A DNA stretch of 63,090 nucleotides, filler included, from Perkinsus olseni (GCA_013115125.1; 2 parts of 2 records of this genome joined end to end with filler, not necessarily neighbours in it); one strand, 5' to 3'; numbered from the whole stretch's first letter, positions 18,661-62,100 are shown. Program-made: numbers and translations. The notes: generated from the sequence alone by a model not told the origin.

Positions 18661-18733
18661 TTCCGATGCGGGGACTCGAACCCCGGTCGCGTGGGTGAGA
18701 GCCACGAATCCTAACCAGCTAGACTACATCGGA
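18661..18733 (-). tRNA. tRNA-Glu(CTC)
   Basis: TCCGATGTAGTCTAGCTGGTTAGGATTCGTGGCTCTCACCCACGCGACCGGGGTTCGAGTCCCCGCATCGGAA folds as a full cloverleaf with anticodon CTC. Confidence 0.96.
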
Positions 18734-29089: not shown

Positions 29090-31448
29090 TCACGCTTCGA
29101 GGAAGGAGGCGTCCACTTCAGTGAAGTGGCGGTAGAAGCCTTGACAAAGTCGGAGCATCGAGTCAATGTCTTCAACCGAGCAGGTTTCCCTGAACATGAG
29201 ATGGGACTTACAGTCGGAAGGTGTCGAAGACGCGGATAGTTGAAGGCAAGGTAAGGATAATTTTGATGATGCAAAGATTTTGCCAGTACTAGTGGCCGAT
29301 AGGATACTCTTAGGGACTGTAACCACACCATTTCCAGCTCAAGATAAATCCGCTGAACTTGAATGCCGTCGTGGTTTCGAAAACTTGACGTGAAAACGAT
29401 GTAGAGCGGCAGAAGAATGAAGCCGGTCATAATCCGTACTTGGCTACTAAATCCTGATGATACTATCCAGATAGTTCAAAGACTGATAGGTGGATATCAT
29501 ATATTATTCACTATGAAAGTAAACAACGGTTTTGCCCATGATACTGAAGGAGGAGGAGGAGATGATGATGATGAAGGGTTACAGGCACAGGGATATGCAG
29601 AGAGTGTTGGAGAGGAGCTCGAGAGACTTCCTCCCTCCCGAGGCGATGAGAGACTCACCTTATGGAGTGCATAGCCCATTGAGTGATACCAAGATCAACA
29701 GTACGGATTCCGAGGTTGGCAGAGAGCATGGGCCCGATAGTAGAGCCACTGCTCGTACCGTTCTTCACAGTAAACTCCTGCAGGGGCACCTGAACAATTG
29801 GCAAATGACGGATTCGTCGGGTCGAATGGGCGTCGCTTACGTTCGATTTTTCGGCAACGACTCGTGTGATAGCGGTTGTAGCTGCGTTGGTAGCATAAAG
29901 TTGGTTAGGGTTGATCTTAATCGCCACGCCCTTTCCGAGGGCCGTCTTGTGTTCAGCCTGGTGACGCTCAGGATAATTCGGGTGAACTGCGTGCTCTCCA
30001 TCCGCCGAGACCAAAATCGACCTGAACCGACTAGAAATGTCGAGGCCAGGAATCGAACCCGGGACCTCCGGACCTCGCCACGAGCTCAGAATAGTCCTGC
30101 TCAGCTGAGAATCCCGCCAGGACTCGCTCGATCCAAGTTTGAACACTCTTCGAGTTGGCCCCGGTAGCACTGCGGGAGCCGACCTCCTCGTGGTTGAAGG
30201 CGACGGCAACAGACAGCTGGGAACCTGAAAAGCCCGTCGTGATTAGTCGAAGCTTTCTCCACACTACTACTCTTAGCGAGCTCATCAGCTTCGGTGGTGA
30301 TCGCGGAGAAGGCCGAGAAGGTTGAGACGAGATTGTCGAGCCTAGCGGAAGCGAGGAACTCTTCGTAGAGGCCGACGAAGCACGCCTTGGTGGCGTCCAT
30401 CATGCAGATGTCGAAGTCGAGGATATCTTCAACTTTGCATCTGATCGTGATGGAAGATGAGATTCCGGCCATGCGCTTCCTCGGTGTAAGTCGAACCGAC
30501 CCGCACGAATACTTCTCCCATGACGAGCCCTTGTCGTCGTTCCAGCCTAGGGCCGAATCTTCCGCAACTTCCCTTTTAAATCTCATTTCTTGTCTCACGG
30601 AAATTCTCACAGGTCTTAGATTATCACGCAATATCGAATCATCACCGGATTACCACAGAATTACGACGGTCGAGAAGAGTACAGCCAAATACAGAACGCA
30701 AATTCCGACGAGTTCGATGCAGAGCCGCCGAGGGCTGCATTATTATTACCCTGACTCATCCGCAAGTAGTTGGAGGAAGACTCGATGGTTCCCTCGGACA
30801 CGTTCCTCAGCAGAAGTGGCGTACTTCTTGGAGCAAAATACTGGGCTGAGGTGCTGCTCGGGATTGAACTGAAAGCAAGCAAGGACGCAGTGTGAGTGTG
30901 GGATAGAACCTGGGTGACTCGAAGCAAGCACCTACCTTGAAAGCCGCCCTCTCCTCGTTACTCTGCAGATGACGACACAAGTTGGGCATGATAGCGACTG
31001 GGCGAGGCACGCGTACCAACTTTTCGCGAATCTTACCCTCGCTGGCAAAGACGACCTTACCGGCCATCCCGAGGCCTCGGTCGAACCACGTGTGCCACAG
31101 CCCCCCACCATAAGGAGTCACACCGAGCTCGAACATTCCCTCGGACTCCTTGGCCGAGTTAGGGCACAATCTCAAGCAGGGGGAGTCAGTGTGGGTACCG
31201 ATGATGACCATACTAGACGTATTGGGATCGAAGTTCTCACCGACGATGAAAGAAAAGATCTCGGAACCGTCACGGATGGTGAAGTACTTGCCGCCCTTCT
31301 TCAAGTGCCACGTCTCGCGCTCACTAAGTCGTTCGAAACCGGCCTTTTTGAGGAGCTTCTCACATTCTAGAACCGAGTGGTAAGGGGAGCCTGTTTTGTC
31401 GACGAAATCTCTGAAAGCGCTGGCGGCAGCGGTAGGGAAGGCGGACAT
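29090..31448 (-). CDS. DNPEP: Aspartyl aminopeptidase (peptidase M18)
   Basis: GTHTDSPCL, PYGGGLWHTWFDRGLG, ARLDNL, FNHEEVGS, SADGEHAVHPNY, GSTIGP and AMHSIR|ETCS. The last exon ends at 29090. Confidence 0.95.
30022..30073 (-). repeat. Intron consisting of a tRNA-3'-half element (sense to DNPEP)
   Basis: GTCCGGAGGTCCCGGGTTCGATTCCTGGCCTCGACATTTCTAG..., with an intact T-stem CCGGG/CCTGG. Confidence 0.85.
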
Positions 31449-31546
31449 AGCTGGTTGGGAAAGTTATATAACAAAACTACACCCCTCCACAAATTCTTAG
31501 CATATCCGGTTTTTCGACTCGTGCACTGTCACCTGGACGAGTACGG

Positions 31547-31646
31547 NNNNNNNNNNNNNNNNNNNNNNNNNNNNNNNNNNNNNNNNNNNNTTAATTAATT
31601 AANNNNNNNNNNNNNNNNNNNNNNNNNNNNNNNNNNNNNNNNNNNN
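31547..31646. other. Assembly spacer (N-run with TTAATTAATTAA six-frame stop linker)
   Basis: 100-nt N block containing ttaattaattaa at 31591-31602. Confidence 0.97.
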
Positions 31647-31647
31647 C

Positions 31648-31718
<71 letters not shown>
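31647..31718 (+). repeat. (CAA)n microsatellite
   Basis: Perfect CAA run at the start of the second contig. Confidence 0.95.
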
Positions 31719-31733
31719 GTCAACACAATTCAC

Positions 31734-33448
<1,715 letters not shown>

Positions 33449-34249: not shown

Positions 34250-37200
34250 TCAGATTGACTTGGGACGTCCCGCTGCTGCTAGCATGTTCGCCTGATCTTC
34301 GAACTGAGAGAACGGCAGGAGCATAGTTAAACAGAGCTTATACGGGCCGGTATTCTTACATTGAGGAAAGTGTTCTTCACAGACACGGGCACAGCAGCAC
34401 TGCTGCCCTCAGGACCAGTACCATAATATTGCTGCTGCTGATGCTGATGCTGCTGTTCATCCACACTGCCCTCTGGACTAACTGACTCCACTGAGCCTCC
34501 AGGGCCAGCAGCGTTCGGACCATTCATTCCCAGCATCTGCTGCCAGTCCGACAGCCCCGTCAAATACCGACCTGACCACCATGACAACTACCACCAAGAG
34601 CAGCAGCTAGCCATCCCCTACTAGGGTCCGCTAGATGAGGCATGTTGCTGGGGGTAAGGCCGTCCAACACGGACTTATTGCCAGCATTGGTGGCAGCATC
34701 ACTGGCCGTGTCTTGTGAGGGCATCCTCGTGAAGGAGCCAATACCGGCGCCGCCGCCAACGACCATTCGGGGTGCTAGATGGGGGCATTGACCGGTACCT
34801 GCCCTCGACGAGTAGCAGGAAATGGGTGAGCGTGTGGTAGCGTACATGGCTGAGGATCCACTTCAGCAACACCATCCAATACAACCATTGGTGACAGGGA
34901 TGCATCATGTAAAGCGGGAGCGGAAGAGACGCCTTCGAACCATGCTGGTGAGTTATTCATACCTAGCATCGACCTAAGATACTCCATCCGACGGGAGCCT
35001 CTGCTTACCAGTCTCCCTAAAGGACCATCTCAATCGTCCGAGATCATACTTGGTTACCTTGCCACAGCTACAATTCTCATCGTCAACCCTCATCACCTAA
35101 AGCGATGCAGCTGGATGGAGGAGGAGGAGCTAAGGCGACCCTACAAACAGCATGGCGGCGATCCTCGTAAAGGAGTCCTTGAGAGTAGGCACTTCTCTCG
35201 ACTTCTTCGCCAACGCTGTTAATACGTTGGCATAGTCGTGGATACAGAAAGTAGTGACTTGTTTAACACAGCATTCAGCCAGCTCCTCCCACAGGCCAGC
35301 ATCACCATAGGACGTGTTAGCTAGAGCCCACATCGAGTTGGACAAACAGTGGGGCGCCAACTCCGGAGCGTCATCGCGGAGCTTCTTGGCACAATCTTCA
35401 ACCTGACCAGCGACAGGCAAACACTACTGTCAAGATCTGGAGAGGTAGGAGATGTCAGCAAGCCACGACCTCACGTCCGCAAAGCGACGTTATGCGCAAA
35501 CGAGTAGGGAAGAGGAGCCGAGGCTGGTAATAGTACCAAATCCGAGTAATCTTCAACTTGACCCATCCTAACAAAACTCCACAGGCATAGGGAAATACTC
35601 TGTGCCGATAGACTGCCGAGGTTATCCCGAAGGACGTCACAGATCTCCTCAATCAACGGCATGACCTGAACCCAACTCGGAAGTACAGGCGGGGATGCAC
35701 GATCTCCTCCTTACCGAGCTGGACGCGGTGTGGCCGAGTTTGACTATGCCGTGCAAGAGCATGGCAGCATCCTGCGCCCCCAGACCAGTGGTCGAGTTTA
35801 TCAAATTCGCACGGTCGGCCAAGGCGTCAATAGCACAACAATCGCAAACACCCATCCGCGCGTAGGCACTAAATATGGTCGCTGAGAAAATATATTCAAT
35901 TCAAGCTGATACCACTCCTTCGCGAGTTCTTACAGATTTCAGCTGTTGAAAATCGGAAGCTCTTAGACTTCACATAGGTTGCTGTGGCGTCGACCAATTC
36001 TGGGTCCTTAGCCGCCAGATCCACGCCCATGTACGCTAGTGCCCATAGACACGTGCCTGACCAAGGGATCGAACCTCTGCGGGAGACGACTACACGGGTT
36101 GCAGACTCACTCAGTTGAGCTGGTGAGTATTTATCCAGATGCTCATCGAGTTGTCTAGCGATAGCGTCACAGCACACTGCGTCATGATAACCAAGTTTAC
36201 ATAGACCCCACGCAGCCGACGTCAAATCTTCGCAAGAGAACCTGAGGAGGACGAAGAGAATAGACGACCCGAAGACCAAACCCCTGCTGGACTTACTTCG
36301 AGGCGAACTGCGCCACACAAGCTTGGCAGGCTTGTATCAGGTCATCATGCTTGATACCAACACGCCCGAACGACTTCAAAATAGTAGCAACATCTTGAGG
36401 GTTAAGTCTCCCGGCCTGCTCATACCAACTTTCCCCCAACTTATTACTCCAACGCTTACCTGTGCGTGCATGAGTGCAACATAGCCACAGCGTTCAAAGA
36501 CCATCTTCACTCGCGTCCGATCCGAGATATGCGGAATCAGTCGGCTGAGGCCCCACAACGTCATCGATAAATCCTGCGGGTTGTACTTGTCGGCTTGCGA
36601 TAGAATCTAACCAACACCAACAATGGGCAACGGGGTGGCTTTATCCACTGGGGAGGCAGAGGTCGAGCAAAATGCATATCCAAAGGAATCTTTGCGCACA
36701 GCGAAGAACACGCATTTCCTTGCTGATAATGCCAGAATACCCGCACTATAAAAGATACGCCCTCCGAGTGGTGCCCTCAACCTACCCTATCACAGACAGC
36801 ACTGAAGTCGATACCCTCATACCAATCAATCTTGGCAAATGCCCAAATCGACCTCGAGATATCCTGGGCGACATACTCCGAGAGATGCTCGCAGAGGTAC
36901 CTGGGGCAGCACGATGAGTTGCCAAAGGTATGGTATTCATATTACGCGACAACAGCGCGTAAAAATTCGGCATCGCTCAACCCAACTTTAACGTGAGCCC
37001 ACAACATCTGTACAGCAACTCGAGGTGTACCTAGAAAAATGCACCACCCTAGAATCGAACCCGCGTCCTTCTCCCGCCCTACTTTTTGCCAGCCGAGGTG
37101 CAGCATAGGCGCACATGTCCCTCACGGGCCCTTCATAGCCGAGTTTGCCACATTGCTCACAAATACCCGTGAGAATAGCCAAATCAAGGCCAGTCTCACT

Positions 37201-38427: not shown

Positions 38428-38613
38428 GGCTCTACTATTATGAAGGATTTACTACGACAACCATCCGCCAGGATCCAATGGCCTCCACAACAACGAGGAC
38501 CAACACGTGCATCAGAAATAGACAACATTAAAAGACACGCCTTTCTCAAATATTTTCAATTTTCACCGCTATCAAAGGACCTCGGAGATTCACTGCCATC
38601 TCCGTCCACCAAG

Positions 38614-41600
38614 TCAATCGACTCGTTCATACTTCGTCCCTCCACAGTATCTACCCAGAAGAGCGCTAGAGGTGTCAGAAAACGTCGGCTCCCTACCTCC
38701 GTCGAGCTGCCCATTGTTACCATCCTCAGTCGGCCATCCTACTGGAGTTGAGGAACCCCACTTGACATCGCTAACGGTGGGAGATGCTACCCAAGCCTGA
38801 TCATCCTGAAGCGGCGGCCAGTCTGTCACTATTTCTCCGGTTTTTTCATCAGTTTCTCCACCGGGCCAATCGCCGTTCACCGGAGACTCCGCCCAATCAG
38901 TCGGGACCGGACCAGGCCACTCCGGGGTGGGGGACCTTCCAGTCGGCGACCAAGACGTATCGTGATGTGAACCAGCTTGGAAGAACTCAGGCGAATCGAG
39001 AGAATCATCACCCAGCATACCACCCGTCGATGGAGTGGCTGTAGTAGAGGATATGATAGGCGGAAGAGACGAGGAAGATGGCGAAGCTCCTGACCGACCT
39101 GAGAGCCGCATCTCCTAAGCAAGGACCAAGCTGCCAGTACGACCTGTGTCATCTGCTGCGCTCTCCTCCACACTCCTCGGTACAGCTATTGTTCCTCCCA
39201 AATCCAACTTCATACCCCTGCACAGCCGCCATCTCGACAGGTAGGCCTCCGCTGCAGGAGACTCTAGCTTTACCGCAACAGACACCATCGGCGCCTCCTG
39301 ATAAAAACAAATCATTAACTTCAGCGGAGCGGAGGCAGAATCGGCTAACCTTGCTTTTCTCCTCGAGTGACAAAAGTATCTCAGCTATTTGAGGCCGACA
39401 CCTGAAGAAAGGTACTGCTTGTTTGCGATCCATCAATAATGACATCTGCGGGAATCGAACCCGGGACCTAGTAGCGGCTTAAGCTCCACAGCTACTCACC
39501 CCATAGGCCTGCCGCCTTCCCCAGCCAGACACTTCTCGACAGCTTGCTTCTCATGCAGCAGGGGTTCCACAAGTACCTCGTCCTCCCCTAGTTGCTGCAT
39601 CGCTTTGAAGAGCTCAAGGAGAGAGTTGGCCAGCAGCGAACAAGAAGGATGGCGCGTTATGACCGCTTCCAAAGCAGCAACCATAAAATCTTGCCCAACA
39701 AGCCTCGCCGGTCGACCGTCTTCAGTGGAGACTATCTCATTCGAGCACGCTGTCATTGCCGTCATGACCAGACATATGATCTGCACGCATGCACAATGAT
39801 GCCACGGCGAGAAAGATACTCCCGACCTCGGTGAGCAGTTCCACGTCTTCTTCTTCTTCCTTTTCTCCTCTTCCCGCTACAACTGCTGTGAGCTCAACTC
39901 TCCTCGTAAACACCGACCGAGAAACCCGTCCGGATGCCGAGACTTCACCACCCTCCACCGCAGGTACACAGCTGCCGCTGGGCGTAGATGCCTGACACAG
40001 ATCTGGGTATCGATCTTAATCCTCCCCCCTAAGCACGTCAAAGCCCTCTTATCGACGCAGAGATAACAAGAGGAATTATACGGGATCAACAAGCAGTCTG
40101 CCTGGCGTTGCGATACTGAGAACTACTTAACAAATCGATCGCTCCACCGACTTGCGAGTAACAAGCACTACATCCCAAGCAAGACAGTTGCGCTACGACA
40201 GCAGCTCTTCGGCTCTCAGAGAACGTCATCTCACCACGTAGCAGCAGAAGTCCTCCTCTTCCTCTCCACAACCATCCTCCCTATCCCCTTCCTCATCCCC
40301 TTGCGACCTCAAGTAGAATAACAAACTTGTAACGACATTGGCAGTGCCGCCCATCACAGGCGTATCTTCTGGTATCTTCCCGGTCACTATTCGAAATACC
40401 AGCTTATCAGCCTCTTCTACCAGCCCCTTCGCCAGGCGGGGGACGTACATTGGTCGGGCATCTTCAGATTGAGAATGATCTGAGTAAAAAATCTACCGAT
40501 CAAACGAGACGCATACCCTGGTACGAGTACTACGTAAATCCCTTCCATACACACCCAAGTTCTCTCACGCATGACCGAACTCCGATACAGCAGCCAACGT
40601 TCCGAGAAGCAGCAGCCGTCCCGCAGAGAAGACCCTCATTCAGCACGGGCATCCCTCGCTTACAGCAGAGGAGCTTCTGGAGCAGCTCAGCACCGTTTCG
40701 CGGTGAATCTTCGTTCTGTGGCTTCTCGTCGCAAATCACATCCACAAAGTCGCGGGCAACCAAATTCTCAAATGGTACCTGTCAGTCGGAGACAAGTGCG
40801 ATCTTGGATGAGCATGGAAGGGGCTATGTCGCTCCCCTACAACAAAAGCGAGTAGGAAATCGGCGTGAGGGCGTAGGGCGATAGCAACCTCGAGGTCGGC
40901 TCTCTTGAGCTAACACAAGGCCAGATCTCTCTGCAAGAAATATCTTAAGCACCATCTGAGAGTCCACAGGACACCAAAAATCGTTCGGGTCTGGAGATGT
41001 CTCTTGGATCTCTTAACTATGATAGTTGATAGGCTCGCTCAACTGTAGCCAGCTCTAGCGAGCAACTGAGCGTCTTTGTTTCAGCTGCGAGGAAATGGCG
41101 CGCTAAATTTAGTCCAAGTTCTCGAGAACTGATCCCCAATGTGATTCCCCAATGGCAAAGAAGTCGTCTATGTAGCAGAGTAGAGCGACACCCAAGAGCA
41201 CTCAGCAGATGTGCGTAGAACTCTGGGACATGCGAATGTAGTTCCTGACGGTGGTGATAGCCCCGAAGGTTTGAGCCATGTGGTCGAAAAGCTACGACTT
41301 GTTGTCACATGGGCACTTCGCTAACCCAGCCCGGCAACAGGTATGACTCACTGAGCAGCGCAGTTGTGTGCACGCCGCATTCATGTCGCTCCTTCCTCAA
41401 AGAGGAGAGGATGGTCTGTCCGGACTCAGAGAGGCGTGTAGATATGCGTGGAACGCTCATTTCGACCGCGTTTGCAGCAATTGTTGACTGTGCGAAAGCA
41501 GATGGCAGTGTTGATGTGATCCATCCGGAGGGGGGCTGAGAAATCTGGACCCTGTCGGTGCAAACGACAATGAGGAGCGGCCATGCCGCTGTGGCAATAG

Positions 41601-42848: not shown

Positions 42849-43052
42849 CAGAGTCACAACAGAGAAAAACTGCCCTTACGTCAATATCGAACGCGTATGA
42901 ACAGAATACACGCAGACGGCTTTGGAAGAGGGGAGCTGAAATAATCATGAAAATTCCTCTTCGACAAGGCGGTGTGAAAAGACAGGGATCATTTTTCCAC
43001 TAGAACTCAGCAACAGAGGGGGGTGGTCGAGAAACGAAAGTTAAGGAATCTT

Positions 43053-44419: not shown

Positions 44420-44612
44420 AATTATCAACAATAATAGGAACTACGAAAGCTGTAAGCCAAGCACAACCCAGGTCACTCCAAACAATATAGTAGAAACTGT
44501 CAGGTGAGTAGAAGTGTTATGATGATACTCATAGAACAACGTGAGTATGACAAGGTGAAGCGGAAAGTGGCGATAACGATGACGACAGTAGTAATAGCAA
44601 TGGTGGTAATGC

Positions 44613-46412: not shown

Positions 46413-46597
46413 GCCCGAGAGCGGTGGGAAATTCTGAACAGTGGCTTTGCTAGCCTGTCCGGCAGTGTCCTACAGGGAATAGACGCACTGTGGCAATCTC
46501 GCTACGCCCTAGTGATCGATTATGACCATCCGTCCCACTCAAACTCGACACCGCCGAGTATACAGTCAACTTATAGTGTACGAATGATGGTCATGTC

Positions 46598-49500: not shown

Positions 49501-49642
49501 CGACGCCATCCCTCTGCTCCTGCAGTCGAGTACTCTGCCGGACCGAGGTCCTACAGGGGCAATGGCCTACCAACAGCCGTTCGGCCGCCTCTGGTGTGAG
49601 CAGGGTTGGAACGTGGGTTGAAGGGGCATCCTCAAAGACCAT
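46598..49642 (-). CDS. Coiled-coil hypothetical protein with repeated C(T/N)F(K/R/T)P motifs
   Basis: RECNFKPRTT, TFTPDIG, AQCTFRPSINK and charged helices. Multi-exon, boundaries approximate. Confidence 0.5.
46673..46708 (+). repeat. Intronic tRNA-3'-half element (antisense to host gene)
   Basis: CCCGCACAGGTTCGATCCCCGGCAGCGTCACCTTTT. Confidence 0.75.
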
Positions 49643-49799
49643 CGTTCTACAGTTCCGGCGATTAATAATTGACCAACGCAAGAAACATAACAGAGGGTAA
49701 TGTACGTTCGAAGCCAGCAGAAATCAATTTGGCGCATCACAGGGTTCGGGCCGCTGAGGATTGCTTTGCTGGTCGCCGAGATACTTAGCGTACTTTTCG

Positions 49800-50643
49800 T
49801 ACAGGTCAGGATGCTCCTCTTTCAACTGAAGGTAGGCATGAAAACTCGAGCGCGAAAGCTCAGGCTATATGGACGATCTCCAAGAGCTATCCAAATCAAG
49901 TAGTATGCTTGGTGTAAGGCCCTACTACCTTGGGATAGAGACTGGTCCAGGGGTCCTCGACCATATCATCCTGCACGAAGCGCTGGATAGGAAGGTCCCT
50001 CATGGACTCGACATCATGCCATCTATGGCCTCCCTTGCCTTTACCTGATACTCTTCTCTACATGAAGCCTCCACCCTCCCGTACTACCTTTCCTACCACC
50101 CCCTCCTTTGTGGAAGTGTCCCCCTTTCCCTTTAGACCCTTGTTGCTGCCAGCCTTGCCAGGAGCCGTCCCTACTGCCGTATGGGCCATCACCCCACCTA
50201 CATTAGGAAATCTATTTTATGCTACATTGCCAGCTATAACCTCTGGCCAGGATATGCTGCTGCCTTCCCTTTACCATACCCCTGCTGCTCCTGTTGCCAA
50301 TACCCTCCTCCTCCTTTGGAATACATAAACAGTCAAACTGCCGTTCAACCCAGGACTCAGAAGCAGCCCCAGACCCTTTCCCGAAGCCTTACAATCCCTA
50401 GTATGATACTAACGCAGTACACGAGACGACGGCGTTGTAGAGAAGCTCTAAGGGATGTCCCTGTTTAAATCAGCAAAACGAAATCACTCTACCGTCGACA
50501 GACGGTTCGATGGCGATCTCCTGAGCGAACCCAGACGACAGAGTTTTATCCTCATAAGATTGGTCTTCCACCTACGTACTGCTCTTGGCTTTTTCGTGAG
50601 TGGAAACGGAAATATACACGTGCCGGCTGCCTTTATTGGTCAT
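49800..50643 (-). CDS. Small Gly/Lys-rich protein with MPLKIP/TTDN1-like C-terminal motif
   Basis: Exons give GKGKGG-rich sequence and RFVQDDMVEDPWTSL, resembling the (S)MLEDPW motif. Boundaries uncertain. Confidence 0.35.
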
Positions 50644-50824
50644 CGAAGGCAAACGAAGAAGTGCGCCGTAGACGATTTCGACTATTTGTCTATTTGAAAA
50701 ATCGTGGCTTACTACGCGCTCGCCCAGAAAATCGTAACTTGACGGTTGTCGCCTTAAGAGGAGCTTAGGGTGATTAAGATATTTTCGCTTTTCTCTCAGC
50801 CCCCCTTTACGTTATATATCTTCA

Positions 50825-52636
50825 ATGCCTGAAGCTGAGTCGAGGAAGAGAGCTCTTGATACCGATAAGGTGAAGTCAGGTCCGCCTGAGGTTATCTATG
50901 GTGATTCCAAAATAGAAGTTGCTGGTAGTACCATAAATCCCTCAAATCATGGGAATCATCGTGGCGTCCTCCTTCAGGTCTGTCGGACCCCTCTGAGGTT
51001 CCCCTTGCACGGACGTTCGACGAGTCCGGGCTTCGGAAATCTTTGAAGGAGTATCTAAAGGAGAAGTTCTCGACCCCGTCAGCTATCCAGGCAGCCTGCT
51101 GGCCCCTCCTCCTCTCGGGCTTGGACGTGGTCGGTGTCGCTGAGACTGGCAGCGGCAAGACCCTCGGCTTTGCACTTCCCTTCATGTCCAAGGCCATGCA
51201 TAAGGGAGATGATGGTATGATGATGGTCCTCTCTCCTACCAGGGAGCTAGCCAGGCAGATCCACGAGGTCATCGTGGATGTCGACAAAAAGAAGCAGAAG
51301 CTTCCATCGATCTGTCTTTACGGTGGCACCCCTAAGTGGGAGCAACAGAAGCAGTTGAAGGCAGAGAAGCCTCGGATGGTGATAGGGACTCCGGGCCGAG
51401 TGCTCGACCTCCTCCAGGACGGCTCCTTGGACCTCAGCAAGGTCAACTACGCTGTGCTTGATGAGGCTGATAGGATGCTTGATATGGGATTCCTTCCGAG
51501 TGTGACGGATATCTTTGGGTATCTTCCCGCACCTGATAAGAGACAATCTCTCATGTTCTCTGCTACTTGGAACAAGGAGGTAATAGTATCTTTTATTTTG
51601 TGTCGAGCCAGCTTCGACCTCAGGTGCGGAGGTTATCAAGGAAGTTGATGAAGCGTGAGCGTATTACTGTTACTGTGATGGGCAGTAATGAGAAGAAGAG
51701 CAATCAGGATGAGCTCACCGCCAACACCCGAATCACCCAAACGATAGATATCGTTCATGACCGGAAGCCCAAGATGAATCGTCTTTGGCACCACCTTGGC
51801 AACCTTTGCCCTAACAAGGGAGTCTGGAAGGTACTTATGTCTGGGGGGCAGGGACAGATTCGCTTTATTATCATAAAAAGTTGTGAAGAATTTGGTACAG
51901 CAAGTACCTTGGTGATATGTCACTTTTCTATCGGCTTTTCGTGAGTCTGATTCCCCTCTGTTATGTAGCGTGCTTTTGCTATTACTCACTCTCTGTAACA
52001 GGTCATCGTTTTTGCCCTGTATAAGAAGGAAGCCGCTCATCTTGAGCGAATGCTTCGGGATTACTATGATGTTGTTGGCCTTCACGGTGACATGACCCAA
52101 GTAGCGCGCGAGGCTTCCATTAAGCGATTTACGGAGGGCCAAAATCTGATACTGGTGGCTACTGATGTGGCTGCTAGAGGGCTCGATGTTAAGGACGTCT
52201 CAGGGGTTATCAACTATACCTTCCCATTGGTCATTGAGGATTATGTGCATAGGTAGGGAGATAGGCGAAGGTTCGATCCTCGGCGAGGCCATTTATGTTA
52301 GGATTGGTCGTACTGGTCGAGCTGGTCGTACCGGTCATGCAGTGACTATCTTCAATGCTGAGGAGGAGAAGCAGTTCGCCTTCGACCTCAAGGGACTTCT
52401 GGAACGATGCGGCCAGACGGTGAGAACCTCTCTCCGGCCACAGTCAGATGTGTATCTTCCATCGGCAGGTTCCCGAGGGCCTTGCTAAATTGGCTAACCA
52501 GACGGGTGGGTTCAAGGCTAGCAAGAAGAAGGTCCATCCTATCTACGGAGCTTTCTTCAAGGATGAGGAGGAGATGGCTAAGTTGGAAGCGAAGAAAACT
52601 CATGTCACGTTCTCGGATGACGAGGATGATGACTAG
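50825..52636 (+). CDS. DBP3: DEAD-box RNA helicase DBP3
   Basis: [40 protein letters not shown] and C-terminal [14 protein letters not shown] typical of Dbp3. Confidence 0.92.
52253..52301 (+). repeat. 49-nt intron with tRNA-3'-half element (sense)
   Basis: GTAGGGAGATAGGCGAAGGTTCGATCCTCGGCGAGGCCATTTATGTTAG. Confidence 0.78.
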
Positions 52637-53068
52637 GTCTCCAGCGCTTCCACGACGACGATCGATACTGAGATCTATTTTACGAGCTAATCGTCACTCG
52701 TCTGCTCCTGTATTAGTTACTGCTAGTTTCATTATTGGATATCTCATCGCCGTCGCTGGAGGGCTCGAAGGTCATCGTTACGTTTCTTCTATGTGTTCAT
52801 TAGTCTGGGGTGGGCTGCTGAGACCATCATGGTTTACACTCACTCAACGTACTGGAATCGGCAGGAACTACTGCCTTATCGTAATGACACTGTCCAATTA
52901 TACGCCGGTTTCTTGTAGAATTAGTTGAGTGTAGAGTGAAGGAGGGTCATATTTCAACCTGTTTTGTATCTTACTGGGTTCAACCTAAGATATCATGCTC
53001 GGCAGTTACTGTTTTTTAGTCTAATAATTGCAGCCTAGGCGGATTTAATTGGGGACTAGCGTTAGGGA

Positions 53069-56000
53069 ATGCCAAGAGTTCAAGAGTATCGGATAGTCCT
53101 CCCCATGGAGATTGAGCAATACCATGTGGCCCAGCTGTATATGGTAGCAAAGTCAAGCTTGGAAGACACCACTGGAGGGGCCGGAGTGGAAGTGGTCACT
53201 AATGAACCGTATGATAATGGTAGTAATGGCCGGGAGTGGGGTTCGAACCGGGGACCTAGTGCTGGTCAATAGTCGGGGAGGAAAGTGACTGCAACGAGTT
53301 ACCTCATCTTCCGCTGCATTGAAATATCGGCGGTCCAGCGTAAATGGTCAGGATGTTGAGCTCTCTCAGGGGAGACCCAGGGTCAATTCACTCACAAGCG
53401 TATTTCGATCGCTCCCTACTTACCCTCTTGGGTCACATCGTTGGTCAACCCGGATTGGCTGGTGTTTGACGAAAAGAGTTGGAACGCCTTCCCTCGGTGC
53501 CGCACCGTCTACTCCTGTCCCATGCTGAGCGAATTCTCGATGGAGATTGACAGTATGCACATCGAAGGCAACTGTACCGACGATAATGCATTAAAACTGG
53601 ATGGTAGTAATAGCAGCGACTGGACGTTTAAAGATGCCTGAACCGGGCGGAAAATCACTGTGAACCTCAGAGTCGGATTTGGCTAAGCGTAAAGTTGACT
53701 TCATCGATATCGTTAATGATCGTATATCGAGTAAGGATTATAATCCTGATGAGGATCCGACTAAGTGGCGCAGCGAGAAGGTAAGGCAATATCAACTCCA
53801 CTGGTTGCTGCTGTATTGTCTGCGTGCTAGCTCGGTATGGGCCCGTTGGAGTCGGACTGGATGGACACCACCCGACCAATCATGACCTGCTACAAGGTGG
53901 GTCTGGAATTGGGAGTTGCGATTGGAGTGGTATGGCTTATCAGGTTATACATGTCACTTGCAACCCAGGCTTCATGATGCAAAATAGAGTTGAGAGCTTC
54001 ATTGTCAAGGCCACTAAAACTACGCTTTTCAAGTAGTAGCAGGGATATCGGAGGGCCTGTTGCCGCGGCAAGCTCATGACGCGCCGCGAAGTCTACTGTG
54101 GTATGGTTCGATCTTGCGGAAGTTCAACTTGGATAGGTATCATCGTAAATGCGTCTGCTGGGCTGACGAGTGGGCGGCTCTGACGATGGATGATATCCGG
54201 CTGATGGAGGACAAAGTGCAAAAAAAATTGAGAAAGTTTTGGCGTGACAAGAGAATTGAGGAAGGCTTAGAAGTTCCGGACGATTCCGATAGCAGCGAGG
54301 TCGACATGGAGGTTGAAGATACTCCCAAGGCCGAAGAAGATGCCTCTCCTGGGAGTACTAGTGGCAGGTCGCGTAGTACAAGTCGATTGTCAGCTAACAA
54401 GGATACTACCGGCCTGCTGACGGTCACTGCATCACCGGTGGATCCGGCAAGGACGAGTGTGAGTGCTAGTGTCAACAATGATATATCGATCATTGGGGCG
54501 AGCGCTAAAGCGAATAGGAAGGCAGGAGTGGATGTGATGAGAGCTGGATCCTTGTTCAAGCTGGGAGATGGTATTATTAACACCAGTTGGAATGAGAGGT
54601 AATGAGAGAGGACGGCGTAGGAGAAAATTGGATAAAAAACTAGGACGGATTAATAAGAGCTGAGTACTATTGGATAGGTCCTTGTGATGTGTTGTGATAA
54701 AATAGAAACTCTTACTCTTCGTTCCCTCCTCGTTGAAACGTCTTTTCCGTCGGTCAATGGATGCTCTTTGCTCCGTCCGCTGCCATGACTGCTTCGAATG
54801 TTTTCTACCTGTCATCGGCAAATTTGTTACTTCTATTGTTATCAGCTCCCTCGAATATTGATTTTTCGTGCGCGTTTGGTGCCGAGGAGTAACATAGTAA
54901 AATACGAGTAAGACATGTCGCATCATGATTGTTGAGAAACAATTGGTCAGAGAAAATTTAATTTCGCAGCTCGGGGATCGCAGAGGAATACACCCTCTCA
55001 TTGGGAAATGCCGGTTGGAACAATGGTGGTGATTTTCCATATCGTAACTTCACTGAGGATGGTTATTTCTGAACCAGTCGTTTATTATTCGGAGTTGGTA
55101 TGATATGAAAATTATTGGGAGGAGCGCCTGCTCACCACCGTCCCCCCTTTTATCTGTAATCTTTTCGGTTTGCGGGGACCCAGCTGTGAAGGGCATCGAG
55201 ACGCGCTGCCTTCGGGCTCCTACTTGTAGGCTGCCCTCCTTTTGTAAGGTACTTTGTCCTGTCGGGGTCAGTGTTGAGCTACTATCGAGATTCACGCGAG
55301 TTGAGGCCGAAGGATAGTATCTCCATGAAGGGAGCTGTAGTGCAATGGTGTGGATCACATAAAGGCCGTGAGCATGCCTTCATAGTGGTAGTAGGCATTT
55401 TCTCGCGCGCCACGAAATTACTGATCTCGGCTGAACTGGTCAGATGCCCAGAGATAATCGTCGGCAGATAGTCGTGTCGGGTGGCAGTGAGGGCGAGACG
55501 AGGCAGTGGATGCTGTGGTGCCAGGAGGCAGCTGATAAGGCCACTGCCACGACTTCGATCGAGGGCAGCTCGCCCAAAGCTGTCAGTGCTGCTACTGTCA
55601 CGACGGAGGATCAACCGAGGGAAGAAGAGGCTGCCAAGGTTGAAGCTGGCGCAGGGCAGAATGCCGAGCTTGAGCAGTCCGATCGGGCGGAGTCGGTCGA
55701 GGAGGTGAAGCCGACGTCCACTGGTGGCCTCCTGCCTGATGAGTGTACACGGTACTTGCCTAGGGAGGCCTTAAAGGGAGTGGAAGGCTTGCTGAGGTTC
55801 GTCAGATGCGGGAATCAGAGGAATGATATGTGCGTGGTGTAAGATGTCGGGCGTGGGATTCGAACCGGAGACCTATAGCTCACCATCTCAGGTCCACTGA
55901 TAAGGGTTTAAGACTGTGGAGAGAAGTCGAGCGAGGGAGAGAGGAGGCTAGTTTTACGGTTTTGCTATCAAAAATATGGTCCGAGGCCACCCGAGTGGAC

Positions 56001-58119
56001 TTCTACTCTATACCCCTCTCCATCGCCTTTGCCATCACCACCGGTTTCGTATTCATCCTATCGGTAACTGGTGCTTTTCTGACACCTCTAGCTGTCGTTA
56101 CTCTCACTATGTGGCTTATGTCCCTGCGTGAGCTACGGCCTGTTATAGATGCAGTACAGAAGGGTACCTGTAGTGGTGTAGCGGTCGGAGAGGTCAGCAT
56201 ACCTACCGCCAGCAACGGCTTCATCGAAGCCGCCCTGTTGGACCTCTCGGAGTGGCACCGGTGGACGCCGGCCCTCCACGGTGATGCTGCGGCCAGGCTG
56301 TCCTGCACAGGCTTGATGATGGTGAAGTACAGAGGGCAGGAGATGGTGGAGCACATCATCAGACCAGTCCGGCGGAAGGGCACTCTGCCATCATTGATCA
56401 TGCTGCATTACAGCCAGAAGCGCAATGACGAGTACACCTGCTGGGCCGTCTACCCTCAGTCCTCATCAGTGTCGGTCATGATGGCCGGCACGAACGGGCC
56501 CGGCAAGGCTAAGCGGACGCTGGCCTTCATCAGGGAGTTCCTCAGTGGACTGCAGCTCGTCATGGTAGTCTGTCCCCGACCCCGCCCTTCTCTACCGGAC
56601 CTGGCCATGCCCCGAGGGAGCGAGCATATCCATGCCACCAGAAGGGGTGGTGGGGGCTGGGTGGAGCTGCCAATACCGTTCGGAGTGGCGGGTCTGGATT
56701 CGGCGCTGAAGACGGCGCTGCTGCACAACTCGGAGGAAGCGGTAGTGGGAGGGAGGTTAGAGGGAGAAGATGCGGCCAGTGTGATGCCGACGCTCATGGG
56801 TAGGTCACGGCGGAGCGAAGTTTTTTCGCGGATATTGACGTTGTCTCAGCAATGTCGTATATGTTCCTCCAGTCGAGTGTCTACCTGCCGAGAGCAAGCA
56901 CTGCCGTCGTTAATAATGATGCTCCGCGAGCGGTAGGAAAAATACCAAATGCTAAAATTGAACCCGGGTTGTATACAGCAGACCTCTGCTCAACCGTTTG
57001 GCCGAGTGACCTTCTCAATGGTCTCTTTTGCAGTTACAACTCGTCGCGGCGTCTTTAGTAGGAAGTCTGCAACGCCTCCTCTGTGCTCTCCAGAGCAGCG
57101 ATGCCTTCCTAGCTACCACTCCTGCAGCTGCTGCTGCGTCGAAGGCCGTCATCATCCCGGGTGATACCTGCCAGTGCAGGGCGACCCCCAGAGGAGGAGG
57201 GAGAGGGGGGCAGGGCGGCGCGGAGATCTGCTGGGAGGCCATCAACGCCAACCATGCATACTATCTAGTGACGGAAGAGAAGGGCAATGGACGGTGGACT
57301 CAGAGAGGAACCATCAAGTGAGAAGGGAAAAATGCCGGATCTGGGATTCGAACTGGGGACCTCGTGGTTGACGCACGGCTTGCCAGGTACGGGGTGTCCC
57401 TGTTACCTCCCTCACTGCGCCATAGGACTACTGGGATAGTCCTTAACCTCACAGGCCACCACTATATCGATTTCCTGAGTAGTGATGATGGTAATATCGC
57501 AGCGGAGCGAAGCAACAAACGATCGTCCAACAAGGCTGTCACAGCTAGGGTCACGGAGTTGCCAAAGCTCGTAAGAAAGTGTCACGTGCCGGGGTCGAAC
57601 CTGGGACCTCCTCCTTCACAGGTTTGCCGTCCTCTAAGCGGGTCGTCCAAGCATTGTTTGCTACGGTGGGAAGGGTGTATCACTATCAGCATCCCTGGCG
57701 ACACTGGGGGCACTTGTAAGCTCTCAATAGCCGACCCCTCGACTGGTGAGCAACAGCATCCACCGCCGCTGTTCCCCGTCCGACTCCTCGTCTTCTCAGG
57801 CTTGGTGACTGGTAGTGTCCGCAATGGTCGAGGGGTCCTGCACAGCTATGCTGAGGGCAACATCTTCGACCGTTTATGTTTCGATGGAGAGCCCCTGTGG
57901 ATGAGCGGAGAACTCCCAGACGATTTGGTTCAACCTTCGGAGGAGACAGTGGGGGCCTTCCCGCCTAAGGGGCCTCTGGTCGAAATAGAGGTGGGGTGCA
58001 GGGATCGAACCAGAGACCTTTCGACTGCTTCGTCTTAGGTTGAACCAAACAAGCGTCTCCTGCCAACCGATTGCCACAGTCACCATTCAACTGGCCGCTC
58101 TAGTCGTGTATCATCATAA
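53069..58119 (+). CDS. Multidomain lipid-transfer protein: PITP + PH + START-like + degenerate oxysterol-binding-like domain
   Basis: PITP: EYRIVLPM..EQYHVAQLYMVAK, GVEVVTNEPY, EKSWNAFPRCRT, YHRKCVCWADEW..LTMDDIR. PH: GSLFKLG...WNER|YFVLSG..LSYY. START-like: LLDLSEWHRW. ORD-like: PGDTCQC..., LLPTDC. Confidence 0.8.
53227..53265 (-). repeat. Intronic tRNA-3'-half element (antisense)
   Basis: GCACTAGGTCCCCGGTTCGAACCCCACTCCCGGCCA. Confidence 0.8.
55841..55881 (-). repeat. Intronic tRNA-3'-half element (antisense)
   Basis: GCTATAGGTCTCCGGTTCGAATCCCACGCCCGACATCTT. Confidence 0.8.
56937..56971 (-). repeat. Intronic degenerate tRNA-3'-half element (antisense)
   Basis: AACCCGGGTTCAATTTTAGCATTTGGTATTTTT. 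Confidence 0.6.
57328..57370 (-). repeat. Intronic tRNA-3'-half element with T5 tract (antisense)
   Basis: CCACGAGGTCCCCAGTTCGAATCCCAGATCCGGCATTTTT. Confidence 0.82.
57571..57621 (-). repeat. 51-nt intron with tRNA-3'-half element (antisense)
   Basis: GGAGGAGGTCCCAGGTTCGACCCCGGCACGTGACACTTT. Confidence 0.8.
57991..58038 (-). repeat. 48-nt intron with tRNA-3'-half element (antisense)
   Basis: GCAGTCGAAAGGTCTCTGGTTCGATCCCTGCACCCCAC. Confidence 0.8.
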
Positions 58120-58174
58120 TTGCTGTTCTATTTTTAGTATGTATTATTAATACCATCCTTTCCCCGAATCATCA

Positions 58175-59023
58175 TCATGTCATGTCGAGTTCACAAGGTA
58201 GTGAACGACCCTTTGGCTCAGCTATGCTCCTCCCTTCCTTCCTCCTTCTACCCATCATCGATGCTTCTGTCTGGGACCCAGCGCCCTGCCTTCGTGCATG
58301 CCCGGAGCTCTCCCAGTCAGTGGCCCTGTTGGAGGCCCTGGTGTACTCTCCTTCCTTGATAGCAGCAGCTCTGTCGGGGGGTCCCGAGGCCGGGTAATGA
58401 TAGAGAGGGGAGACTTTGGCCCTTCCAGTGGGTGTTGACAGGTACGAGGCTGTTCGAGAGGATGGGCAATATTCTTGTGTAGCCGAGAAGCTCTGTGGGA
58501 CATGCACGGAGGTGAGGCAGTGGGATGGAACCTGGGACATATTGAGAGCTGCTCGGTGCTTCACCACTTGACCAGGTTTCCACGTGCGACCTTGGTCGAT
58601 GCATCGTCGATAACATAGAGTGTCGGCGGTTGACTGAGCTCACTTCGGAATTGGTGAAGATATGCTACTGCGCCATCGGTGAGGAGGCCCATCACCCCTC
58701 CCCTGCACGACTCATCGCCCCAGGCTATGATATCGGCCTCCTGAGCCAGATGATCGACCCTCAATGGACGGCCGACCCTCCGCTTTGTGAAGGCGGCTCC
58801 GGCGCTCCTGAGGGCACGGCTGAACGGATAGGAAGCTCATGCGGAGGTGAGTATCTTTATCCAGTGTGACAGATCTTCGCTTTCTCGCAGATTTCGAAGT
58901 TTCCGAGTTCCTTGCTGGTACTCGAGACGAGTCTGGCGGCCCTGTAGATAGGGACGATAAGAGCGGGGCGGAGCAAAGCACTTGCAGAGTTATCACGTTC
59001 ATCACCCTTATGGGTATCTCCAT
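58175..59023 (-). CDS. Hypothetical protein, multi-exon; boundaries uncertain
   Basis: Coding-like blocks (LRVDHLAQEADIIAWGD...ARGNLVKW) separated by GT-AG intron 58493-58564, which carries a degenerate B-box GTCCCAGGTTCCATCCC. Confidence 0.35.
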
Positions 59024-59105
59024 GTTATTATAGTTGTTACCATTGCTGTTATCTTGGTTGTTGTGCAGTTGGGAGGGTGTTCACCAAGCATCCTCGTAGC
59101 CGTTG

Positions 59106-62100
59106 ATGTCGTTTAACGGCGGTAGTCCTCCTCCCCCTCCGCCACCACCAGCGCCTCCAGAGGTCAGCCATCCCATAGGGCAGACGGCTGCTGCCAGCGC
59201 CCCTGCCGCGGTAGTGGAGGCCGCGATCGCTGCCGCTGCTGTTTCTTCCCCTCCTCCCCCCGCTCCTCCCCAAGCACCAGCATCGCTGCCAACGACCAGC
59301 AGTAGGCCGCCCAGTGCTGCCGCTAGTACGGCCACCATCAGTACATCGGGAGTCAACACTAGATTGAAGGTTGAGGAGATGAAGCAGTACCTCGATCAAG
59401 CTAAGTGCCTGTAATACTGGTTGTGGAAGAGTGGCACTTGCGGGGATCGAACTTATGCGGGTTTCCCGCAAGATGTTGGTCTCAATTCAGATTCGCCGAT
59501 TCGCCGGGGAAGTACGAGGAATTACTGGAAGTTATAGCCGGTAAGAAGAACATCTCCAGTAGCTTCCTGAGGCTTCCCTCAGGCATGTCCAAGCGGACTC
59601 GACCTCGCCCGCCGCCAACACCCCCACCAGCTAGCGCTGCTACCTCCACTCCGACTGCTCCCACCGCCAGTGGCCTCGGGGCTCTAGTAGGGCAGCTACA
59701 GCAGCTCAGCAGCAATAACACTACCCCTGGCCAGCCGACAGGAGCGACAGCAGTTGGCAGTTCGAGCGTCCAGATGATACAGGCTCTGCAGGGCTTGATG
59801 CAGCACCCCACTCCGCAGGCCCCAGCCCAGCCACAACCAACTCCTATGGAAATCGCTCGGCAGGAAGATGATACATCCGAACTGTGAGGGAGGAGAGATG
59901 TGCGTATCTTTATTACCTGTTCTTTGCCAGGGACAACCTAGATGTTGGTACATTAATCGATCGGCTGTTGAAGATATTCGAAGGTCACGGAGCGGCTAAG
60001 TCAATGGTAGCTTCGGCGGATCGAGCGAAGCCTCCCTTCTGAAGGGTGGGCGTCAGGTCCTTTGTTTCCTCCAACTGTGTCGACTCTCCAACCATCCCGC
60101 TGCGAGTTGGCTGTTTGAGGAGGCGGAGAGGCTGAGGGAAGCTGAGGTGAAGAGACAAAAGGAGACGGAAGAGAAGGAAGCGGTCGGTGGTTAAAATGCT
60201 GCATGCCGGGTTTGAACCGGAGTGTGTTTCAGTTTGCAGCGGTGAGTGCGGCGGCACGCGCTACGGCTGACGTAGTCGGCCCTCCCGGACCACCGATATG
60301 TCTGGATCGCGCAGCGACTATGGCGTTCCTGACTGCTGGTAAGCTGCTACGGGAACATGACTTTTCTCATTATTCTCAACTCAGTCCTTCCAACGCTACC
60401 GAGCAACGTTTATGCGGTAAGCAAAAGGTCCCTGGTTCGATTCCCAGTAGATGTATTTTCCCTCTAGGTCTTAAGCTCGGGTGTTTATCAAGGTCTTGAG
60501 GCCGGTATAGTAAACAGTAACTTCGACGAGGGTATGAGGAGGGTCCTCCAGAACTACGCTATGGCCACTTCAGTGTAAGAGCCGGGATGGATCCTTCCGT
60601 GTCTGTTGGCTCTCTCGCACCTCAGCCAAGACGGGTAACTGAGTGGCTGATGCCGACAGTGGTGGGCAGGTACCTGGCGCATCGTAAGTCTATGATAAGA
60701 GTGCATGGAACCAACGAGTCAGCATTCCCGAGTAAATCCTCCAATACGAGGAGGTTGCCAGCAACAACAGCTAGAGGGAAGAGAAAGCGCGGTGGTCGTG
60801 GTGCGAAAGTGGCTTCTACCACTAGCTCCGAGGAGGTGAGTTTTTCCGGTATCGAGCGTTTTTACGTGAGTTAAAACCTCATAGGCGCTCAACAGGATTG
60901 TGATAATTTCAGAACGGGCAAGTGTCGAGCGAGGAGACCAGCGGGGAGCCTCTCACGCCAGAGTCGGATGAAGGGACTGATCCATCTCTGCCGCCGTCGC
61001 GGCCGGCGAGAGGCCGGAAGAGAAGGGTAATTTCTGATGGAAAAAGTGTGAAATTGATCCACCTCTCACAGGCGGCGGCTGCGCCATCATCATCGGAGGA
61101 TGATGATGCAGTACCGAAACGGCGATCAACTCGTCGAACTAGGAGCACCGCTGTGAAGGTGAGCAGTGGAAGGTGTCATAGTCAGTTTACTTACTATCGG
61201 TCGCTCCAGGCGGAGGCGTCGCGAGGCGGCGGCGGTGCAGTGTCGTCGTCCTCTTCTGAGCTGGACTCGGCTGAGGGCACCAAGCGCGGGGGCCGTACTA
61301 CGTCGAGGAAGAAGGGCAGCAGGAGCTCACCATCGGCTGCTGCTGCTGTTTCCAACATGCCCTCACCGGCGCAGAAGTTGGCGGAGAGGACAACCATTGA
61401 GGGAAGGGAGAGGGCTGTGCTGGAGATGCTGGCCGCCTTGCTACCACCAACACTGGCCCATGAGCTGTAGGGATCGATGAAGTGGTGGAAGTGTGGTATT
61501 GTGGAGGGTTCTCAGGTATAAAACGTTATCCATTTGGTTGGCAGGAGGTTTCGAGGTCTCGACTGTGACAAGCTTCTTAGAGTAAGAGAGAGGGTCGTCC
61601 GTCGTCGTTGGTGGGTACTAGCGTTTTCAGGCGAATCCTTGGCCACTTGCGAGGTTGTGCTACAGCTCCAGCATCAACAGATGATGATGATGAGGAGGAA
61701 GAGGAGGGCGGACCTGATGTCGAAGCGCAGCGGAAACATGATGCTATCTTCGATATCTACACCGACCAAGAACGTGATGATACTCATTGGCGGAGCGAAG
61801 CGTTTCATGTTTACTCATTTTGTAACGTCTTTTAGGTACAGTATTATTGAATCGACTGCGAGAGCTGGACCATGCTGTGGTTGAGGTTTGTAGCAAGCAT
61901 ATCGTCGACCTCATTAATGCCGCCCTTCTCAAAAGGGAGGCGGCCAAGCAACGGAAGGTACAGCGGCGAAGGGCCCCCCTTCCTGTGACCTACAGCTCAG
62001 CGTCAGGTTATGAAGGAAGCCCCGAAGGCTGATGGGTGTAGGAGTTACCTTAGCCACTTGTAGGTGCCTCTTCCTGGTGGCGGGGCACAGCTGCTGCTAT

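Follow-up and report, generated by a model that had tools for sequence, protein, structure and literature searches.

What is the tail of a tRNA gene, or something very like it, doing inside the introns of protein-coding genes? The question is raised by a 63-kb stretch of DNA from Perkinsus olseni ("the window", by which we mean the whole stretch that was analysed; all of our counts refer to it), in which a module of about 35 nucleotides (nt) occurs 20 times. The module reads AGGTC, then GGTTCRANYCC, then six unconserved bases, then C-A and a run of T. Its copies have the B-box/T-loop consensus of a tRNA gene, a discriminator base 12 nt past the loop, and an oligo-T terminator, and they do not encode CCA. 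Most of the copies are the core of short spliceosomal introns: this is supported by transcript joints for four copies and by colinearity with an ortholog for one, and is predicted for the rest.

The module and its register

The motif GGTTCRANYC occurs 19 times in the window, versus an expectation of 2.40 (standard deviation 1.63; the maximum was 7, and 0 of 100 shuffles reached 19). Once the true tRNA gene and the second strand of palindromic matches were removed, 17 exact copies were left, and adding 3 copies with one mismatch gave 20. They all lie between 26,345 and 60,460, at a density of about one copy per 1.7 kb, and the first 26 kb of the window has no copy of the module.

Among these 20 copies, which were selected on the B-box itself, position +13 after the 7-nt loop is A in 16 (P = 3 · 10−7) and a purine in 18, and the base before it is C in 15. 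Positions +14 to +18 are T in 75 of 100 cases (background 0.24), and 15 copies have TTT inside +14 to +20. The T-run starts 1–2 nt late in 6 copies, and in 3 copies (36075, 53249, and 58011) there is no TTT in +14 to +18. A purine followed by TTT was found in 14 of the 20 copies, versus just 3 of the 301 other TTCRA sites of the window. Neither CCA after the discriminator (0/20) nor an A-tail is present.

The first-pass annotation of this DNA had described the same register (T-loop, 12 nt, purine, oligo-T, and no CCA), and the description holds for the full set of copies. All seven of the examples that it quoted are present in the sequence as written. It had placed one of them at 60417, and there is a copy there on the + strand, but 60417 is the start of the intron and the tail of the copy is at 60444–60460. 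With neither CCA nor an A-tail, the copies also agree with its view that the source was unlike mature, CCA-tailed tRNA or a short interspersed nuclear element (SINE) with poly(A).

To describe the module by position, we made a sequence logo from the 17 exact copies. At the positions that were not selected, C48 (in tRNA numbering) is invariant (17/17), and each position of AGGT is matched by 11 of the 17 copies. Position 72 is C in 13 copies, position 73 is A in 13 copies, and the five positions after 73 are T in 11, 13, 16, 11, and 11 copies. The acceptor-like strand before C72 (positions 66–71) and everything upstream of position 44 have about zero information.

A profile of the 20 copies gives them scores of 13.6–25 bits (a match by construction), and the next-best site in the window scores 6.6 bits. 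With the same profile, the best scores in 10 shuffled windows were 5.7–8.3 bits. By profile score, then, the 20 copies form a discrete class. Overall, the geometry of the module is real and is far above chance.

Location of the copies in introns

The most direct evidence that copies lie in introns is from transcripts. Contigs from three public runs were placed on 42,900–62,800, which gave 58 joints, and we examined 15 of these. All 15 are GT..AG introns, of 41–227 nt. Four of the 15 (227, 104, 57, and 49 nt) carry a copy, and each of these four joints was found in all three runs. All four copies are in the sense orientation, with the T-run leading into the acceptor. Of the 20 copies, 14 lie within the 19.9 kb that has the 58 listed joints, which corresponds to roughly a quarter of the introns there (a rough figure, as 15 of the 58 joints were examined and some joints may be alternatives).

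A fifth copy is supported by an ortholog. The M18 aminopeptidase of P. chesapeaki aligns without a gap across 30022–30073 and is colinear with the gene there; therefore this 52-nt stretch, which is almost wholly module, is an intron. It has TTTCTAG and then, 9 nt further, the CAG acceptor that is used. We also noticed that the two acceptors at 30022–30034 (− strand; TAG and CAG, 9 nt apart) are in frame with each other. The ortholog alignment fits the distal CAG, and the proximal TAG would add three residues.

For the other 15 copies, intron placement is predicted from splice motifs and from reading frames, which were read by eye. The 20 copies are spread over at least 8 genes, and their similarity to each other is limited to about 35 nt. 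All 20 are as follows, with "sense" and "antisense" relative to the host gene.

26345–26380, − strand (copy 26371): discriminator G, with CTTTTAC next; a predicted + strand intron at 26343–26388 would make the copy antisense; host strand ambiguous.
26505–26537, + strand (copy 26511): discriminator G, with TTTTCAG next; predicted + strand intron 26497–26539 (43 nt, sense); a − strand intron at 26491–26543 is equally well formed.
30033–30067, − strand: sense; fills the 52-nt intron 30022–30073 of the M18 aminopeptidase gene; supported by the ortholog.
36051–36080, − strand (copy 36075): discriminator A, no T-run; sense; predicted − strand intron from 36110 (GTGAGT), with its 3′ end at 36036 or 35882.
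37034–37070, − strand: sense; predicted 52-nt − strand intron 37031–37082 (GTAGGG ... TTTTTCTAG).
39436–39469, − strand: sense; predicted − strand intron from 39499 (GTGAGT), with the acceptor at 39446, 39418, or 39415; tail TTATT.
43189–43221, − strand: sense; 3′ end of the 227-nt intron 43183–43409; joint in contigs of three runs.
43838–43872, − strand (copy 43864): sense; 104-nt intron 43836–43939; joint in transcript contigs; the only copy with a 7-bp acceptor-like closure upstream.
44754–44788, − strand: sense; fills the 57-nt intron 44745–44801 of the MFS transporter gene; joint in transcript contigs.
46676–46707, + strand (copy 46681): A, then CCTTTTCAC; possibly upstream of the covered transcript (contig depth falls here).
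52264–52296, + strand: sense; fills the 49-nt intron 52253–52301, downstream of the DEAD-box exons; joint in transcript contigs.
53225–53257, − strand (copy 53249): antisense; predicted + strand intron 53220–53272 in the PITP gene, which is on the + strand; the tail ATTACTAC complements a GTAGTAAT donor.
55841–55874, − strand (copy 55866): antisense; + strand intron 55839–55891; the tail TCTTAC complements a GTAAGA donor; contig pieces from 55892.
56938–56971, − strand (copy 56964): antisense; predicted + strand intron from 56933 (GTAGGAAAAAT) to 56981 or 57033.
57328–57362, − strand (copy 57354): antisense; predicted 69-nt + strand intron 57318–57386; T5 is 10 nt inside a GTGAGA donor.
57576–57609, − strand (copy 57601): antisense; predicted 51-nt + strand intron 57571–57621.
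57991–58020, − strand (copy 58011): antisense; predicted + strand intron from 57979 or 57991 to 58038; discriminator C, tail TCTATTT.
59427–59458, − strand: the weakest copy (AGTTCGATCC); antisense; predicted + strand intron from 59411 to 59472 or 59490.
60193–60223, − strand: antisense; predicted 50-nt + strand intron 60190–60239; the tail TTTTAAC complements a GTTAAAA donor.
60425–60460, + strand: sense; fills a predicted 51-nt + strand intron, 60417–60467 (GTAAGC ... TTTTCCCTCTAG).

Near the first of these copies, we noticed a perfect 11-bp inverted repeat (26335–26362) around the T-run of copy 26371, in which the acceptor-like strand pairs with sequence past the tail.

Other short introns in the window seem to lack the module. 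By eye, the amino-acid transporter gene (19.4–20.9 kb) has five introns of about 46–55 nt without a copy, with GTAAG donors in four and GTGTAAG in the other. In the M18 gene (− strand), two short introns (30225–30270 and 29790–29840) have a T-loop-like TTCGAYY that lacks the preceding GG; after it come 12 or 13 nt, C or A, and a T-run. These stretches may be decayed copies. Across the 15 RNA-supported introns (43183–52468), the joints share 0–5 bases per side and the donors are mostly GTAGKR-like; in 9 of the 15, GT directly follows the acceptor (AG|GT). A contig piece that ends at 56798 implies another intron, of 50 nt, at 56800–56849 (+ strand; GTAGGT ... TCTCAG), within what had appeared to be a single long frame. 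It has a small hairpin around a T6 run and no B-box.

Orientation and the splice sites

We read 10 of the copies as sense and 10 as antisense relative to the host gene. Most of these assignments are predictions from splice motifs, reading frames, and a weak codon-usage model, which we trained on 1,909 codons to help assign the host strand. The model separated known genes, and it is weak at 26.0–27.1, 46.3–47.0, and 58.9–60.9 kb. Direct support for antisense copies is sparse: just downstream of copy 55866 (− strand), contig pieces set in at 55892, past an AG on the + strand. The gene at 53.3–55.5 kb is placed on the + strand by its PITP and PH domains, and the additional intron at 56800–56849 is on the + strand as well. 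Also, if copies 26371 and 26511 are both in one gene, then one of them must be antisense.

The first-pass annotation had looked to the antisense copies as the critical case. In the window, they retain both the A at +13 (7/10) and the T-run (35/50), as do the sense copies (9/10 and 40/50), with orientation mostly predicted in both groups. Such similar conservation in both host orientations speaks against a function in the pre-mRNA; it favors a property of the DNA itself or of the element.

In both orientations, the T-run is near a splice site. In sense copies, it ends in YAG (for example, TTTTTCTAG, TTTTTAG, or TTTCTCTTGTTCAG). In antisense copies, AC follows the T-run and its complement is a donor (for example, CTTTTAC, TCTTAC, TTTTAAC, CTTTCTTAC, or ATTACTAC): the complement of the T-run either is the 5′ splice site (GTAAAA, GTAAGA, or GTTAAA) or lies 3–10 nt inside the donor. 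The module meets the intron boundary with its T-rich end; the length of its left side is variable, at 6 to about 190 nt. The claim that the T-run is not just a polypyrimidine tract is therefore right, in that the run is present in antisense copies (35/50 T), but it is not independent of splicing, as it is always by a splice site.

The copies are not tRNA genes

ARAGORN and Rfam agree on one genuine tRNA gene in the window, a tRNA-Glu(CTC) at 18661–18733 on the − strand, whose trailer has only three T. This gene scores 6.6 bits on the 20-copy profile. The tRNA covariance model (Rfam RF00005) did not report any copy at E ≤ 10, either across the whole window or in a search of 1.8 kb that holds three copies. 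At a threshold of 85%, ARAGORN called four copies, and at least three of these predictions extend past the intron into the flanking exon. (At a threshold of 75%, it called 117 "genes", which we dismissed as noise.)

The stems of a tRNA are not maintained either. Across the copies, 62% of T-stem cells are paired, versus a mean of 66.5% if the 3′ letters are shuffled among the copies (488 of 500 shuffles were at or above the observed value), and sliding the partner by one column gave 59% and 53%. Regular pairing in the T-stem is confined to the two pairs that are fixed by the B-box consensus, and we did not find a five-pair T-stem that co-varies between copies. Folds of three of the longer copies had z-scores of 0.02–0.29 and did not form a cloverleaf.

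There is also no sign of a 5′ half with an A-box. Counted from G52, the logo is without information at −40 to −9 (an A-box would be expected at about −44 to −33, with its first four positions outside the logo). In the short introns, the exon starts just 6–13 nt upstream of position 44. In sum, the copies are neither tRNA genes nor recognisable tRNA pseudogenes.

How might these introns have arisen?

The explanation that we favor, at about even chances, is that the module is an introner-like insertion family. It would derive from the tail of a tRNA-type gene transcribed by RNA polymerase III (Pol III), terminator included, and would form the core of very short introns in either orientation. The unit carried would be the last third of such a gene: the variable loop, the B-box/T-loop, the 3′ strand of the acceptor, the discriminator, and the oligo-T terminator. 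If the module was inherited from a tRNA-type gene or from its primary transcript, this would account for the presence of the terminator and the absence of CCA. The family would spread by insertion, most likely via 5′-truncated, reverse-transcribed Pol III transcripts, although capture of DNA fragments is an alternative route. (The variable left side and the fixed T-rich right end fit copies that are 3′-anchored and 5′-truncated.) Insertions into coding sequence would survive only where the flanking AG|GT and the ends of the module gave usable splice sites. Sense copies would use the T-run as their pyrimidine tract ahead of YAG, and antisense copies would use its complement as the purine-rich GTAARA donor. 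The retention of the B-box, C48, YA, and the T-run, without the stems, would reflect constraint on the propagating source (a promoter and a terminator) rather than on an RNA fold.

Several of our results weigh against this explanation. We did not find any hallmarks of transposition, and no terminal inverted repeats were seen in the window. Nor does the window contain a full-length source element, complete with an A-box. The copies share no long similarity in a self-BLAST of the window, and no subfamilies emerge from the 12 variable columns (3 pairs agree at 9 or more of the 12, versus an expectation of 0.88, and the highest observed agreement is reached in 59% of shuffles). AGGT-type microhomology at the intron ends is equally common in the absence of a copy (1, 5, 3, and 4 with a copy versus 2, 1, 2, 0, 5, 2, 4, 3, 4, 4, and 3 without). 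For splicing of the antisense copies, the evidence is one contig boundary (55892), together with splice motifs and open frames. The intron predicted for copy 57601 (57571–57621) keeps the frame and lacks a stop, which means that an open frame is no proof of it, and copy 46681 may be non-intronic. Finally, conserved blocks beside saturated linkers could equally reflect selection at the level of the host.

This last point leads to the first rival. Block-wise conservation without pairing of the stems is explained equally by selection on a propagating source or by a protein that reads two blocks at a fixed spacing. If the latter, the copies would be functional DNA sites within introns, similar to extra-TFIIIC (ETC) sites, at which a TFIIIC-like factor or another bipartite binder recognizes the extended B-box and the YA/T-run. 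The host might keep such sites for chromatin organisation or for interplay between Pol II and Pol III, for example. The first-pass annotation had raised a protein of this kind as its alternative, and the presence of conserved blocks without base-pair covariation favors it. Conservation is linear and holds whichever way the host transcript runs; the linker is fixed in length and unconserved in sequence, which is typical of a two-part protein site; and the lack of subfamilies, and of a tail of half-decayed copies in the profile scan, would fit as well. However, a site every 1.7 kb or so within transcribed genes would be a series of roadblocks for Pol II, and to our knowledge, ETC sites do not need a terminator at tRNA spacing. 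A binding site also leaves unexplained why the T-rich end is the intron boundary in both orientations, and the five short introns of the amino-acid transporter gene do without one. We consider this explanation unlikely.

Slightly less likely still is that the copies were captured independently from the 3′ parts of different genuine tRNA genes or pre-tRNAs, as filler at breaks or as one-off retrocopies, without any self-propagating family. The conserved positions are common to tRNAs in general (C48, G53-C61, C72, and A73), the acceptor strand differs in every copy, and the absence of subfamilies would be expected, as would a terminator without CCA. Also, the acceptor-like closure of copy 43864 is at 48 nt, versus 53 nt in the real tRNA. 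But copies of real tRNAs should pair and covary in the T-stem, and the pairing is below the shuffled mean. The window's own tRNA-Glu scores just 6.6 bits on the family profile, and the covariance model does not match any copy. If decay had been strong enough to erase the stems, then C48 and the T-run should be eroded as well. Several of the acceptor-like strands are AT-rich and are presumably unlike the acceptor strands of real tRNAs. The suggestion in the first-pass annotation of a genomic or unprocessed tRNA as the template is partly borne out: the gene-like register, the terminator, and the lack of CCA agree with it, while T-stem pairing at chance levels and the lack of a covariance-model match do not support genuine tRNA genes as the direct source.

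Last, it is very improbable that the likeness to tRNA is coincidental and that the module is a lineage-specific splicing signal (for example, with a branch-site-like TCGA core), with the T-run as a pyrimidine tract or as the complement of a purine-rich donor. Such a signal would fit a palindromic TCGA core that is 18–33 nt upstream of the acceptor in both orientations, a T-run that abuts a splice site in nearly every copy, and a purine content of 70% in the donor regions of the 11 copy-free introns with RNA support; but those donors are only about 39% A (manual count) while the antisense tails are 70% T, which is an excess of T beyond donor composition, copies 56964 and 57354 have a pure T5 5–10 nt inside the donor, and no splicing signal comes near the specificity of the 22-nt AGGTCCCNGGTTCGAWYCC block with YA at a fixed 12 nt. 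We rejected TCGA as a general branch site, as TTCRA is missing from both strands in 10 of 15 copy-free introns; 5 of the 6 instances of TTCGA on the sense strand are in one gene (M18).

Two other candidates were dropped. These were a Helitron-like end (a hairpin, about 11 nt, and CTAG) and a bipartite site similar to a recombination signal. For both, the hairpin is not maintained, and the terminal TAG or CAG is the acceptor.

Comparison with known systems

One likeness is to the introners of Micromonas, Aureococcus, dinoflagellates, fungi, and others: copies that are similar over about 35 nt are found in different genes and, mostly by prediction, in both orientations, they make up most of the intron, and the splice sites are at or next to the ends of the element. 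Known introners are mostly DNA transposons of at least 100 nt, and they were found by clustering similar introns. In contrast, the shared unit here is only about 35 nt, in introns that are as short as 43–57 nt in total; there are no terminal inverted repeats, and no target-site duplication beyond the AGGT that is common to all of the introns here; and the content is the tail of a tRNA gene.

Published introner screens, to the extent covered by their datasets and main texts cited here, do not report this form of intron for Perkinsus. Dataset S1 of PMC12130899 has 0 introner families for those assemblies of P. chesapeaki, P. marinus, and P. olseni that we found in it. A supplement of PMC9860276 has zeros for the three Perkinsus species, in columns whose headers were not visible to us. 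The main texts of the two large introner surveys, as distinct from their supplements, do not mention Perkinsus, tRNA, or SINEs. In Dataset S2 of PMC12130899, one family from Polarella glacialis, with 1,709 introners, is labeled as "tRNA" by RepeatClassifier; that entry is classed by the authors as a DIRS-type long terminal repeat element. Our literature searches did not find a paper on tRNA-like introners or on tRNA-like sequence in Perkinsus introns.

The copies also resemble tRNA-derived SINEs and tRNA retro-pseudogenes, in that they are dispersed, would originate from a Pol III gene, contain a B-box, and have an anchored 3′ end and a variable 5′ extent. A SINE has a tRNA-related 5′ head with A and B boxes, then a body, and then an A-rich or simple-repeat tail. 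The module is just positions 44–73 and the terminator, with no A-box, body, or A-tail: it corresponds to the 3′ third only, and it ends in a T-run. Similarly, retro-pseudogenes from mature tRNA carry CCA, unlike all 20 of the copies.

ETC sites of yeasts and the chromosome-organising clamps of fission yeast share with the module an isolated, conserved B-box, without an A-box or a complete tRNA. ETC sites and clamps are few and mostly intergenic. The module differs in that it is frequent, is inside introns, and has YA and the T-run in register, and it is known here from the sequence alone.

Within the genus, tRNA genes are also tied to mobile DNA by the Dada DNA transposons of P. marinus. According to the parts of PMC3706591 that describe them, Dada elements (4.7–11 kb) code for a DDE transposase and target real tRNA genes, where they insert into the A-box and duplicate TAGCTC; some tRNA genes of P. 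marinus are reported to have hundreds of copies. Unlike the targets of Dada, the module lacks an A-box and is in introns of protein-coding genes. We view Dada as context and not as an explanation.

Host genes and other features of the window

On the basis of its coding content, we take the window to be nuclear DNA from a Perkinsus-like alveolate. It is rich in short open frames with eukaryotic domains: M18 aminopeptidase, MFS transporter, DEAD helicase, PITP, PH, proline racemase, amino-acid transporter, kinase, and Sin3. In its first exon, the M18 gene has 80% identity to a protein from P. chesapeaki, and most of the next named matches are from alveolates, at about 50–58% identity. We also scanned metagenomes with the M18 exon. 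Of the 80 loci that were kept, the best is 55% identical and none is from a close relative, and these loci were not used.

Three other features are listed here.

7833–9070 versus 10769–13387: three blocks (499, 198, and 303 nt) duplicated in the same order, at 77–87% identity.
10146–10212: a 67-nt near-perfect palindrome (96% self-complementary), which matches a microRNA precursor family below threshold (46.5 bits, versus a gathering score of 86).
31547–31646 and 31647–31730: two runs of 44 N, followed by a trinucleotide repeat that also matches 1–32 of the window.

Implications

The module suggests a mechanism, not described before, by which introns are made or marked. We suspect, with more doubt than belief, that genomes of the Perkinsus type contain a large and uncatalogued class of mini-introns of 43–60 nt, either derived from inserted tails of Pol III tRNA-type genes, in either orientation, with the terminator reused as a pyrimidine tract or as a donor region, or else containing intronic TFIIIC-type sites that are kept by selection. 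As a rough extrapolation from one window, there could be thousands to tens of thousands of these mini-introns in the genome.

The origin of new spliceosomal introns is still debated, and the module adds a case in which the unit is short, resembles the end of a Pol III gene, and would be usable in either orientation. If our explanation is true, this would be the first case of intron gain that is driven by a Pol III transcription unit. And with just about 35 nt in common, the family would escape screens for introners that cluster introns by similarity. More broadly, the retention of the blocks without the stems makes this a clean system for asking if selection acts on the propagation of an element or on the binding of a protein. 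Better models of these introns would improve the annotation of genes in this parasite of molluscs. If the pattern is genome-wide, then it would link Pol III genes to the gain of introns, and current screens would be missing very short introners.

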